Assembly: GCA_963721805.1 (NCBI GenBank)
Contig: CAVRJY010000001.1
Coordinates: 416,001-480,000, forward strand
Direction: 5' to 3'
DNA from: Nitrospirota bacterium
GTDB lineage: Bacteria > Nitrospirota > Thermodesulfovibrionia > Thermodesulfovibrionales > JdFR-86
DNA length: 64,000 nucleotides
Part shown: piece by piece, positions 1,035 to 64,000 of the stretch
How positions within the stretch are numbered: the stretch's first letter is position 1
Layout: every line of letters begins with the position of its first letter
Program-made: the position numbers and the translations under genes
Notes under the pieces: generated by a model
The model's input: only the letters and a program-made list of their open reading frames with translations
What the model was told of the DNA's origin: nothing
The model's database searches: none

Positions 1035-1085
1035 GCTTAAAATTCTCTGGCATGCGCAATGGGGTTGTGGTATCCTTGGCACATG
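1035..1085 (+). promoter_or_regulatory. Conserved motif P copy 1 (extended -10-like TGgTATCCT followed by ATG)
   Basis: 44/51 nt identical, by hand alignment, to the reverse complement of 63856-63906. Confidence 0.75.
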
Positions 1086-39527: not shown

Positions 39528-40385
39528 ATGACGTCCGAACCACTTGGCCTCGGCCATAAAGAGCTGCTATGGGCGCGCCTCAAGGGCGTGGGCACCCCTT
39601 TGTCTGAGTACTGCTTCTCGAACCTGTACCTGTTCCGGCAGGCGCACGCCTACGAGGTCGTGACCGACCGCGATATCCTGATACGGGGCCGGACGTATGA
39701 CGGCCGCACCCATCTGATGCCCACGGCGGATATCCGCGAGATGGACATCGAGTACCTCGCCGGGATGATGGACTGCTGCGACTTCATATACCCGGTGCCC
39801 GAAGACAGGCTCGGGCTGTTCCCCCCGGAGCGCTTCAACGTGGAGTTCAACGAAGGGGACTCGGACTATATCTACCTGACCGAGAAGATGAGCTCTTACG
39901 CCGGGCGCCGCCTGCACAACAAGCGGAACCTGCTTAAGCAGTTCACGTCCTCATACCGCCACGAGGCCCTCCCGCTTACGAACGACCGCCTCGGCGACGC
40001 GGAGCTCGTCTTGCGCGACTGGCTCGCCAACTCAGGCTTGGGGGACGAGGAGTCGGACTTCGGCGCGTGCCTTGAGGCCATCGGGCTCTACGAGCAGCTA
40101 GTGCTGTGCGGCGGGATATACTACGCCGAGGGCGAGCCGGCCGGCTTCATCATCGGCGAGGAGGTCACGCGCGACACGTTCGTGCTGCACTTCGCCAAGG
40201 CGCGCACGAAGTTCAAGGGGATATACCAGTACATATTCAACAACTTCGCCTCGATACTGCCGGAGTTCTACACCTACATGAACCTCGAACAGGATCTGGA
40301 CAAGGCCACACTGCGAGAAGCGAAATCGTCGTACCTGCCGGAGAGGAAACTCCGAAAGGCGAGAGTGAGTCTGCGGGTGAAATAA
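39528..40385 (+). CDS. DUF2156 / aminoacyl-PG transferase-like domain protein
   Basis: SEYCFSNLYLF, DYIY, HFAKA, NLEQDL..LREAKSSYLP. Confidence 0.8.
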   Translation: MTSEPLGLGHKELLWARLKGVGTPLSEYCFSNLYLFRQAHAYEVVTDRDILIRGRTYDGRTHLMPTADIREMDIEYLAGMMDCCDFIYPVPEDRLGLFPPERFNVEFNEGDSDYIYLTEKMSSYAGRRLHNKRNLLKQFTSSYRHEALPLTNDRLGDAELVLRDWLANSGLGDEESDFGACLEAIGLYEQLVLCGGIYYAEGEPAGFIIGEEVTRDTFVLHFAKARTKFKGIYQYIFNNFASILPEFYTYMNLEQDLDKATLREAKSSYLPERKLRKARVSLRVK

Positions 40386-40397
40386 GAGCATTTTTTC

Positions 40398-40668
40398 AAA
40401 GCGCTCCAAATCGTTTGATACGTTGTTGGGCATCGAAGACTCGCCCTCGGAGTACGCCCAGATAAGAAGTGACCTTCTTCAAAGCGCGCCAAATCGCTTG
40501 ATACGTCGTTGGGCATCAAAGACTCGCCCTCGGAGTACGCCCAGATAAGAAGTGACCTTCTTCAAAGCGCTCCAAATCGCTTGATACTGCGTTGGGCATC
40601 GAAGACTCGCCCTCTATGTACGTCACAAGACGCCCCCCGCGCCCCACGAGGTCAAAGGCATTGATTAG
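40398..40668 (-). repeat. R8: three tandem half-copies (83-bp period) of the long repeat plus its head
   Basis: AAAGCGC at 40398, 40481 and 40564; ends GGTCAAAGGCATTGATTAG. Confidence 0.92.
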
Positions 40669-48326: not shown

Positions 48327-48700
48327 GAGGCACGTTCGGATGCGCGGCTTAGGTATAGTTATGCATTCCGCGCGCGTGCGCGCGCATTTTTTTTAGAGCG
48401 TTCAAATGAACAAACAAAACAAGCTTTAACCCTGCGGAATTTCATTGCTTTTTGGCGACCTCCGTGTTCATGCGTTCAGAAACAGTTTTCACTCTGTCCA
48501 TCGGTCACTGTCGTTACTTTCAGCGCCATCAAAATGAGCATATCAGCCTCATCCCGTATTGAAGCACATCGAAATGAAAAATGCGATAACCTATGGTTTA
48601 TATATAAACCGAAGTTCATAGGAAAAATTGTCCCCCGTGCGTTTTCTATTAACTTTCGATTAACTGTGGTTAATGAGGGCGGAAACCACTGTGATAAATA

Positions 48701-48740
48701 TCTGGAATACTCTAGGCGGTTGTGGTATCTTTGAAGCATG
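48701..48740 (+). promoter_or_regulatory. Conserved motif P copy 2
   Basis: TCTGGAATACTCTAGGCGGTTGTGGTATCTTTGAAGCATG; 36/40 identical to copy 3. Confidence 0.75.
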
Positions 48741-61886: not shown

Positions 61887-61975
61887 ATGAATATTCTCCT
61901 TACAGTTTAGGCTGTGCGCATAAACTGAAACATATCACGCGCACCGCCCAACAATCAAGGGGTGGCCGCTTTTTC

Positions 61976-62050
61976 AAAGCGAGCCAAATCGCTTGATACG
62001 TCGTTGGGCTTCAATTTTACCAAGCGGGACTCGCCCTCTAATCACGTCTC
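61976..62050 (-). repeat. Degenerate partial long-hairpin repeat R12
   Basis: AAAGCGAGCCAAATCGCTTGATACGTCGTTGGGCTTCAA..GACTCGCCCTCTA. Confidence 0.8.
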
Positions 62051-62081
62051 GTTTGCGTGAGGGTTTGCCCCTTCATTGGCC

Positions 62082-62115
62082 ATAGTTAATCCAAAGTTAG
62101 TAGAAAACGCACGCC
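62082..62115. repeat. 34-bp direct repeat, copy 1
   Basis: 32/34 identical to 63928-63961. Confidence 0.85.
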
Positions 62116-62222
62116 CCTTAACTTGCAATAGCGGTCAGCATATTACTATGATGGTAAATTAAAACGCTCTGTGCTTCAATGCAAAAGATTATCAGGTCTC
62201 GGAAGGCGCGGTGAAGTTAATC

Positions 62223-63083
62223 ATGAAAAAAATCTTCATACTCGGAGTCGGCTGCCAAAAAGGCGGCACAACATGGTTGCATAATTATCTTTCAAAGCAC
62301 CCGAGCTCCAATATGGGGTTCACAAAAGAGTACCATATATTCGACGCCCTCTACCTGCCTGAGTATGAGCGTTACCGTCACAGGACAACCGAGTATGCCA
62401 GCGCACTCATAAGAAAGTCAGAAAAATCCCTGCGCAGGCGCTTGCTGGAAATCAGGCTCCGTAAATTATTCCAGAGCGATATCAACAGATATTTCGACTA
62501 TTTCGCTAAAAAAGTCAACTCGTCGGATGAATTTACTTTTACAGGGGATATCACGCCGGAATATGCCGGTCTGTCGTCGGAAGTTTATGGGATCATTAAA
62601 AACGGGGCCGAATCAAGAGGGTTTGACGTGAAGGCCGTATTTATAATGAGGGACCCGGTCGAGCGCTGCATATCAGCCATGAAAATGCGGAGAAAACAGA
62701 TGAGATTGGACCTGACGGATGATGAAAACGCCTCGCTTATCAAGGTGTATTCCACGAGAGATTTTCAGTATCTTACGCGGTACGAAAGGACAATGAATAA
62801 CTTGGAGAGCGTATTTCCCGCCAAAGACATTTACTATAATTTTTATGAGAATCTTTTTAACCCGTCAACCATGGAAGAGATTACGGATTTATTGTCAGTG
62901 CCTTTCGTGCAACCGAATTTCAATAAGCGCAAAAATGCGTCGAAAACCAGCTTTCAGATCGATGAAAGCATTCGAAAAAGAGTTTTTGACTTTTACGGCG
63001 ATACGTATGATTTCATGGCCGGCCGCTACGGGAAAGATTACATTTCAAGCATATGGCCAAACTACCGGAACCTCTCAACCTGA
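62223..63083 (+). CDS. Sulfotransferase family protein (AT-rich)
   Basis: GCQKGGTTWL PAPS loop, KEYHIFD, GDITPEY, MRDPVERCIS. Confidence 0.88.
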   Translation: MKKIFILGVGCQKGGTTWLHNYLSKHPSSNMGFTKEYHIFDALYLPEYERYRHRTTEYASALIRKSEKSLRRRLLEIRLRKLFQSDINRYFDYFAKKVNSSDEFTFTGDITPEYAGLSSEVYGIIKNGAESRGFDVKAVFIMRDPVERCISAMKMRRKQMRLDLTDDENASLIKVYSTRDFQYLTRYERTMNNLESVFPAKDIYYNFYENLFNPSTMEEITDLLSVPFVQPNFNKRKNASKTSFQIDESIRKRVFDFYGDTYDFMAGRYGKDYISSIWPNYRNLST

Positions 63084-63122
63084 TTCTCATTCCCCGTCTG
63101 CTGCGCCGCGCCTAACCCCCGC

Positions 63123-63303
63123 AAAGCGTGCGAAATCGCTTGATGCTGCGTTTGGGCTTCAAAGACTCGCCCTCGAAGTACGTATCAGTACGTCGTCGGG
63201 CGTTCTTCTCGCCCTGCCTTGTCTGAAGACGATTTGGGCGCGCTTTCGGGGGGAGAGGATAACGGAAGCCCCCCGCGCCCCACAAGGTCAACGGCTTGAT
63301 TAG
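63123..63303 (-). repeat. Long-hairpin repeat copy R13 (subfamily A)
   Basis: Same core; ends GGTCAACGGCTTGATTAG. Confidence 0.93.
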
Positions 63304-63348
63304 AAAGGGCTACGCCGAATTAAATAGAACAGCCCCCCATTATTTAAG

Positions 63349-63783
63349 TTAGTAGCTTGGAGGCTTATCTGTACAAAAAACGGAAGGCGTTGCTTTAAAT
63401 ATATCTTTGACATCAATAGGCAGCGCAAGTGTAAAGGGCTGATGACTAAGATCCTTTGCGTAATTCTCAAGAACAGTATATGTATATACGCCGCCTTGCG
63501 TGTTCGCGATATCTAATATGACGCTTGAATTTACTATATCAACTTTAGCAGCATTTACGGCTCTTCCCCGACGAAAATCAAAAATCATGCTCTTTCTTCC
63601 GTTAAGGCTGAAAATTAATACCGCTTTGCCCGAAGCTGTTGCACATGCTGTATAAAAAACAGGCGTCTTGGTTTGTTGTAGCTCAGCAAGGTAATTATCA
63701 GCAACAATATTAAACACTTCATCCTGTCCAAGTGACACACCTGTTGCAAGAAACATGAACACCAAAGCTATGAGAGATTTCAT
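63349..63783 (-). CDS. AT-rich hypothetical exported protein (orphan-like); in-frame upstream ATG at 63858 within motif P
   Basis: MKSLIALVFMFLATGVSLG signal peptide; low GC. Confidence 0.7.
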   Translation of the reverse strand: MKSLIALVFMFLATGVSLGQDEVFNIVADNYLAELQQTKTPVFYTACATASGKAVLIFSLNGRKSMIFDFRRGRAVNAAKVDIVNSSVILDIANTQGGVYTYTVLENYAKDLSHQPFTLALPIDVKDIFKATPSVFCTDKPPSY

Positions 63784-63855
63784 AACAAAAGGTGACGGGT
63801 CTATTTTTCTATTGCCCTTTAAATGGCGCAAGCCAGTCATCATCCCATTGCGCAT

Positions 63856-63906
63856 CATGCTCCAAAGATACCACAACCGCATTGAGTATGCCAGAGAATT
63901 TAAAGC
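63856..63906 (-). promoter_or_regulatory. Conserved motif P copy 3
   Basis: Reverse complement GCTTTAAATTCTCTGGCATACTCAATGCGGTTGTGGTATCTTTGGAGCATG. Confidence 0.75.
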
Positions 63907-63927
63907 GAATGCCCCTATTTATTAACT

Positions 63928-63961
63928 ATAGTTAGTCGAAAGTTAGTAGAAAACGCACGCC
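63928..63961. repeat. 34-bp direct repeat, copy 2
   Basis: ATAGTTAGTCGAAAGTTAGTAGAAAACGCACGCC. Confidence 0.85.
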
Positions 63962-64000
63962 TACAAAATAATTTGCCAGATATAAACCAAAGTTTGGTGG

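Follow-up and report, generated by a model that had tools for sequence, protein, structure and literature searches.

A repeat-bracketed accessory-gene slot with a probable leaderless promoter motif in a Nitrospirota genome

The DNA analysed here (the window) is a stretch of 64,000 nt, C1:416001-480000, from a 2.78-Mb assembly of 9 contigs with approximately 60% GC. The GC fraction is 0.44-0.45 across window positions 62001-64000, and in an Rfam search of the window tRNA was the sole match. Near the window end the minus strand carries a passenger gene (63349..63783) encoding a small protein of 144 aa, predicted to be exported, with the hydrophobic N-terminus MKSLIALVFMFLATGVSLG. On the same strand the gene is preceded by a 51-nt conserved block ending in ATG (motif P, copy P3, 63856..63906), and its 3' end faces the head (…GGTCAACGGCTTGATTAG) of the repeat copy R13 (63122..63306, plus strand). 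The earlier note had described this minus-strand order, motif P3 (63906-63856), gene and R13 head, and had placed the ATG of the motif in frame with the gene. Sequence matches bear out the order, and the ATG (63858-63856, minus strand) does share the reading frame of the ORF and precedes MKSLIALVFMFLATGVSLG by exactly 25 codons, leaving an open bridge of 25 codons (63784..63858, minus strand) between the motif's ATG and the native start. The conserved block around P3 reaches upstream to 63959, further than first described, as the terminus of an AT-rich module X. P-a, the 40-nt terminus of X (CGTGCGTTTTCTACTAACTTTCGACTAACTATAGTTAAT), occupies 63921..63959 and the final 80 nt of the module 63921..64000 (both minus strand), while X as a whole, 29 ends of which were aligned, runs on to ~64261. 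The remainder of X and another repeat copy, R14, lie past the window end in the genome sequence (C1:479921-480443, minus strand), and R14 (~64262-64443, minus strand) is the opposing R copy for which a search beyond the window had been suggested. R13 and R14 (C1:480264-480438, minus strand) are inverted partners, 84% identical over ~175 nt, and the whole unit reads R14 > module X > P > gene < R13 within ~1.3 kb.

The repeat R, of ~185 nt, combines a core that folds as a long imperfect hairpin with a GC hairpin and a head; it has 209 BLAST matches in the genome and 137 heads counted by pattern. The full R copy at 63122-63306 is opened by the 18-mer CTAATCAAGCCGTTGACC (63303-63286, minus strand, 0 mismatches), which has 4 matches in the window at ≤3 mismatches against 0.04 expected, and the R13 DNA folds better than its shuffles (z = -2.57). 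No flanking direct repeat (target duplication) was seen when the outer tails of R14 and R13 were inspected by eye, and in the comparison with IS200-like ends no matching parent IS emerged for R. When R, X, P and the passenger were sought in 30 genomes of the same family or order, argG alone gave matches. The TnpA of an IS200-like element was considered as the mobiliser of R and was ruled out because the ends of the element are unrelated to R. The element is 602 bp long and present in six identical copies (C1:42213-42814, 366468-367069, 1251879-1252481 and 1452027-1452629; C4:138455-139057 and 146420-147020), with a 144-aa Y1 transposase (PF01797), CCCCGTGGCTTGCCACGGGG hairpins at both ends and a left flank that is always TAAC. 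Two of its copies are found within cargo slots, one of them in the C4 cassette bearing motif P. Two more repeat families of IS size were noted, one with a length of ~1200 bp and ten or more copies at ≥99% (e.g. C1:81095-82306) and one of ~1096 bp with at least 7 copies (e.g. C1:626589-627684).

The neighbouring slot (61962-63121) is irregular, with a low-GC sulfotransferase-family gene (62211..63083, plus strand; Pfam PF13469, 5.9e-11) in place of X. It also contains a solo P-a copy (62062..62113, minus strand), from which the rest of X is absent and which points at a truncated R core; of this core the first 53 nt remain (61962..62014, plus strand), closing a 2.5-kb low-GC island on the argG side. 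By-eye comparison with R copies revealed a degenerate second head (CGGGGGTTAGGCGCGGCGCAGCAGACGGGG…GGTTGAGAGG, 63075..63121, minus strand) on the opposite side of the R13 core, overlapping the 3' end of the sulfotransferase ORF, so that one core seems to serve two adjacent slots. Elsewhere in the window (40381-40629), three tandem 83-nt units equivalent to the first half of the R core and 78-100% identical stand before a head. In at least 13 cases the sequence after an R head is not X but a chain of short units, each GAGATGAGCGC…GCGCGAATAGTGAGAGGGG with a small GC hairpin (e.g. C1:383084+, C1:1052012- and C4:110459+), and these chains resemble a separate modular repeat.

Module X is 341 nt long, AT-rich, carries GTTCGGAT iterons and ends in P-a, in which there are three TTAAY repeats. 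Its R-proximal start consists of a GC hairpin, CGCGCGCATGCGCGCGCG, followed by TTTTT (L001 5129-5112, minus strand), a terminator-like site that would face transcription entering from R. P-a is present in 29 copies genome-wide, 3 of them in the window (0 in shuffles); a same-orientation R lies 290-390 nt upstream of at least 23 of the 29 copies, and the next downstream R copy is inverted in 23 of the 29. The cargo at the other X ends is of typical accessory and defence types, namely an MmeI-type restriction enzyme, HepT/MNT pairs, MazF, ParE, HicA, Gp49/HTH, KAP NTPase, HNH, AbiU2, SIR2-like, SRAP and DUF559 proteins.

The passenger, which the earlier note took for an orphan, turned out to belong to a family: an exhaustive HMMER search returned 66 cluster representatives of ~140 aa at E≤1e-3, 16 of them at E≤1e-10, the best homologues being 41-46% identical and 140-146 aa long. 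An alignment of 27 of the 66 homologues (the 31 best-scoring rows minus four of odd length) contains proteins mostly of 137-166 aa, a few with up to ~14 extra N-terminal residues, in which C47, G97, G98 and C137 are invariant. The N-terminus MKSLIALVFMFLATGVSLG|QDE is a candidate signal peptide of n-h-c type, and the 27 aligned homologues have like hydrophobic N-termini. A word-based search recovered the passenger itself alone, with a public call of 169 aa, and a profile word search added 5 further proteins on short contigs. The family is uncharacterised and gave no match in Pfam, it was not found in a sample of 400 other genomes of the same phylum, and a comparison with plasmids and phages gave no match. 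The AlphaFold model is an alpha+beta fold with a pLDDT of 90.3. Foldseek found nothing significant in the PDB (best E 0.38); the wide VIA comparison gave best Z scores of 4.8 (ToxS periplasmic domain), 4.3 (Ivy) and 3.2 (PliC), all below a meaningful level; and the best ESM Atlas score was 0.87, to Bacteroidota clusters. The family combines a confident predicted structure with the lack of a significant solved-structure match in the searches run, and it may for that reason represent an undescribed small periplasmic fold. From these comparisons the passenger appears to be a horizontally acquired small protein with predicted export.

Motif P recurs beyond this locus. Within the window GGTTGTGGTATCYTWGRNNCATG is matched 3 times, with 0 matches in 100 shuffles, and in the genome it occurs five times, at window positions 1063-1085(+), 48718-48740(+) and 63878-63856(-) (P1 to P3), at C2:~66177(-) and at C4:~139504(-). 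P3 aligns with the first of these copies at 87% over 52 nt (63855-63906 with 1035-1086) and with the second at 87% over 45 nt (63856-63900 with 48696-48740). Three of the five exact copies follow P-a by 20-25 nt and two directly follow an R head, with no X. A profile of the five copies finds a degenerate sixth just after an R head (C1:72593-72645), which is followed by an AT-rich membrane-protein gene and then by an inverted R head. The order R > P > co-oriented gene(s) > inverted head is present at all five exact copies and the degenerate one, on either strand. The earlier note had held the polarity P > gene > head to be intrinsic to the unit; it recurs at all six P copies but is not intrinsic to the platform, since the nearest ORF at X ends is co-oriented at 15 of 21 loci and opposite at 6 (mechanical ORFs of ≥70 aa; two of the 21 loci have host-like GC), and the platform itself therefore imposes no gene polarity. 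Polarity belongs to P, not to the platform.

The only other profile match in the genome below E 0.01 is a look-alike (nhmmer E 0.003) found directly before a GC-rich native gene for a P-type ATPase, in a place where no repeat is close. The ATPase ORF starts exactly on the look-alike's ATG, a TGA lies two codons upstream, and Cation_ATPase_N begins at residue 19. A P look-alike before a native gene without the repeat argues that P is a type of host promoter rather than a platform-specific element. In contigs of other genomes, exact P was found at 2 loci in one Nitrospinota MAG, in a duplicated region with no similarity to R or X. A relaxed P pattern gave 29 loci in metagenome contigs, with only the 23-nt pattern in common; by a rough guess of the collection size these could be at about chance level. 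Several of the relaxed matches open plausible ORFs at the ATG, but the pattern itself forced that spacing. Eight soil-type metagenome contigs (L011, L012, L017, L027 and L029-L032) share an identical stretch of ~70 nt ending in GGTTGTGGTATCATCGGAGCATGAAAAAG, upstream of which their sequences are unrelated, as at the end of a mobile element, and the first gene begins 6 nt after a TATCAT -10.

Sigma-70 promoters have the -35 consensus TTGACA and a spacer of 17±1 nt, and an extended -10 carries TGn before a TANNNT hexamer. The layout of P is cTGGCA-N18-TGgTATCTT-N6-ATG; in P3, on the minus strand, CTGGCA lies at 63894-63889, followed by the 18-nt spacer, TG (63873-63872), TATCTT (63870-63865), 6 nt and the ATG (63858-63856). 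CTGGCA agrees with TTGACA at 4 of 6 positions. The combination of TGn and TANNNT is kept as TGgTATCTT in all five exact copies and in the ATPase look-alike, and the degenerate copy at C1:72593 reads cGgTATGAT, with TG lost, a better -10 (TATGAT) and the same spacing. P was not listed by a sigma-70 scan because its hexamers score 8/12, under the threshold of 9/12. The distance between the -10 and the ATG was compared with a survey of 2794 first ATGs in the same genome, taken from ORFs of 200 codons or more. TANNNT peaks 5-8 nt before these ATGs at 16-31 per 1000 (31 at gap 6, a value that could be due in part to in-frame TAA/TAG stops, although the out-of-frame gaps 5, 7 and 8 are also raised), against a background of ~10 per 1000 further away and 2-7 at internal ATGs. 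Similarly, TGNTANNNT occurs at 4-9 per 1000 at gaps 5-9 before first ATGs versus ≤1. The 6-nt gap of P sits on the genome's own positional peak. A reading of P as a structured RNA was ruled out, as the motif in RNA form folds less well than its shuffles (z +2.3).

We conclude from the motif's layout that P is most likely a sigma-70 extended -10 promoter for leaderless mRNA. With the -10 only 6 nt before the ATG, the transcript start should fall at or beside the ATG, and the mRNA would be leaderless or nearly so; a start on the ATG would explain why a conserved non-coding block ends in ATG. At three copies (P2, C2 and C1:72593) the downstream gene has its own GGAG-type Shine-Dalgarno motif, and leaderless translation is not needed there.

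Evidence on how the cargo is delimited came from contig C9 (13.7 kb), which aligns collinearly, at 80-85% identity, with C1:844383-857787. Only the slot differs between them, with 1617 nt in one version and 1478 nt of unrelated DNA in the other; the swapped DNA is 44% GC in both versions and the flanks are 62-63% GC. Homology ends within 1-2 nt of the last base of P-a and returns ~15 nt before the inverted R head, both junctions being from this one slot pair. The cargo is a HepT-family gene and DUF5677 in C1, and DUF4019 with two unknowns in C9. By analogy these junctions would put the P3 cassette at ~63920 to ~63320, with motif P on the cargo side. Exchange of cargo between the P-a terminus and the inverted R head is shown for this other slot, and would apply to the P3 locus by its equivalent arrangement. 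Because the breakpoints coincide exactly with the end of X and the head of R, what was a loose association of repeats with nearby foreign genes becomes a slot defined by two mapped junctions, which provide information for seeking an enzyme or for testing whether plain homologous recombination between repeats suffices. No other intragenomic copies of cassettes were found except the IS. Four small contigs (C3, C7, C8 and C9) each run collinear with part of C1 but have diverged from it (80-95% identity), their counterparts being C1:1327954-1347918, 798234-809841 and 844383-857787. More than one related strain or species must therefore have contributed DNA to the assembly, and C9 may come from a co-binned relative rather than from the same organism. 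Among these pairs a swapped slot occurs in the C9 pair only. An indel between C1:807494-807611 and C8 is not repeat-related.

The conserved elements of P allow other interpretations. Sigma-54 promoters are built on GG and GC elements 10 nt apart with a -12 TGC, and P could be such a promoter (TGGCAT-N5-NNGC) working with an enhancer-binding protein, in which case transcription would start ~12 nt after the GC, inside GGTATC, and the leader would be very short. GG-N10-GC is present in six of seven copies (P3, P2, C2, C4, the degenerate copy and the ATPase look-alike; not P1), and both sigma-54 (rpoN, PF04552) and sigma-54 activators (e.g. L043) are encoded in the genome. However, the T of the -12 TGC is present in only one of the seven copies, sigma-54 does not require the conserved spacer ACTCA or the downstream GGTTGTGGTATCTT, two or three P copies are without module X or an obvious upstream activator site, and the genome-wide -10-before-ATG signal suits sigma-70. 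The sigma-54 reading appears weaker than the sigma-70 reading and is, in our judgement, very unlikely. P might instead be a recombination or cassette-boundary site, a counterpart of integron attI/attC for a slot-loading enzyme, and its promoter appearance secondary. Its position 20-45 nt from an X terminus or R head, where it leads six different cargos, would fit such a role, as would the ~40 nt shared by P3 and C2 before an abrupt divergence, which shows joints between the module and different genes. In the one slot pair compared, however, homology breaks off at the P-a terminus rather than at anything resembling P; P is found in just 5-6 slots while other X ends are without it; the close look-alike belongs to a native gene that has no repeat near it; and no recombinase gene lies near the locus, the nearest PF00589 match on C1 being at C1:637283. 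We consider a boundary-site function unlikely.

A third interpretation concerns the stretch downstream of the ATG, which could be a real coding leader, the 169-aa fusion being the functional form and its first 25 residues a targeting or regulatory peptide. Public annotation gives the gene in its 169-aa form, and no Shine-Dalgarno motif can be seen ahead of MKSL at 63783. A leaderless 5' AUG would be the preferred start, and the basic character of the extension is compatible with a long n-region of a signal peptide. The extension is nevertheless absent from the homologues: the 27 aligned proteins start at or near the hydrophobic N-terminus, so the 25 codons are not ancestral, and the alignment points to MKSL at 63783 as the ancestral start of the family. 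The first ~40 nt of the bridge are common to P3 and C2:66177, which then diverge abruptly at …CCATTTAA, and every difference within the shared part is amino-acid-changing (MMRNGMMTGLRHLK vs MMHIGMRTGWCHLT), indicating that the stretch is not a conserved peptide. The in-frame fusion in the earlier note is present at P3 but is not a property of the unit, for the ATG of the other copies opens ORFs of 8 (P1), 14 (P2), 31 (C2) and 9 (C1:72593) codons and, at C4, a membrane ORF of 92 codons; at P1 the real gene already begins within the ATGA that closes the 8-codon ORF. Some 20% of shuffled bridges stay open before frame is counted, and an open in-frame bridge of 25 codons has a chance of ~0.067 per locus, which makes one fusion among six P copies unremarkable. 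A functional leader peptide is possible but doubtful, and we would say the same of use of the 5' AUG by the host, which may still yield a 169-aa precursor.

Taken together, it seems somewhat probable that we have here a single complete slot for accessory genes, part of a repeat system specific to the lineage, with P as its leaderless promoter. Read on the minus strand, the slot would consist of R14, module X, the cassette and the head of the inverted R13; cargo would be swapped in the interval from the P-a terminus to the inverted R head, motif P falling on the cargo side; transcription would begin at or next to the P ATG; and the 5'-terminal AUG would happen to be in frame with the horizontally acquired gene, the fusion being a by-product of the point at which gene and promoter module were joined rather than something built into the unit. 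If P does act as a portable leaderless promoter, it would account for the expression, in a host of 60% GC, of AT-rich foreign genes even where a usable ribosome-binding site is missing. More speculatively, and rather improbably, the R/X slots might form a chromosomal gene-capture and expression system of integron-like logic but unrelated to integrons. A putative recombinase would cut at the P-a terminus and R head, X would provide terminator insulation and iteron docking sites, and cassettes would bring the leaderless P, so that ORFs could be translated without their own ribosome-binding site by direct start, by in-frame fusion (P3) or by ATGA stop-start coupling (P1).

Several known systems resemble parts of this arrangement. 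An integron platform comprises intI, attI, the Pc promoter and attC-bounded cassettes, and the slots share with it small, mostly unrelated accessory genes in defined positions, a promoter at the leading edge and structured repeats of conserved fold bounding the cargo. Unlike an integron, the slots are scattered round the chromosome, the repeats are inverted pairs rather than same-orientation attC sites, and the cargo is of mixed orientation (15 vs 6). No integrase lies beside the slot: the 7 PF00589 matches are at C1:637283, at C2:24314, 301571, 306705, 332357 and 585118, and at C4:31944, and the locus is at C1:479-480 kb. REP/BIME/REPIN sequences with their RAYT, and the pdif modules of Acinetobacter plasmids, represent hairpin repeats at gene ends and modules between inversely oriented sites, respectively; R is likewise an abundant hairpin repeat, and accessory modules are bounded by its inversely oriented copies. 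A REP/REPIN-RAYT system has a single-copy Y1 transposase with the repeats on its flanks; this reading was rejected, as PF01797 finds only the six identical 144-aa IS200-like ORFs, whose ends are unrelated to R.

In the available portions of the literature on leaderless mRNA in Nitrospirota, on passengers of MITEs and insertion cassettes and on outward promoters of Correia elements, no such system was found. As far as the accessible part of the source describes them, mobile insertion cassettes and MITE-bounded passenger genes are transposase-less passengers between inverted short repeats (PMC5444012). The gene described here is similarly transposase-less and lies between inverted terminal repeats, R14 and R13; compared with those accounts, R differs in that it forms hairpins, is 185 nt long and found no matching parent in the IS200-like element compared with it; the extra 341-nt X on one side is a further difference. 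Leaderless mRNAs arising from a -10 directly upstream of the ORF are described, in the parts of the reports available, for Deinococcus-Thermus and Actinobacteria (PMC12340547, PMC4007540, PMC3898074, PMC3160421). P resembles the promoters in those accounts in its TANNNT-type -10 a few nt before the start, with no Shine-Dalgarno motif, and in the genome-wide positional peak seen here; it differs from them, to the same extent, in lineage and in that one version of ~50 nt recurs as a portable module at slot edges. Nothing about the promoter itself is unusual; the novelty lies in its repeated occurrence as a portable module in slots bracketed by repeats, and in the mapping of two cargo junctions.
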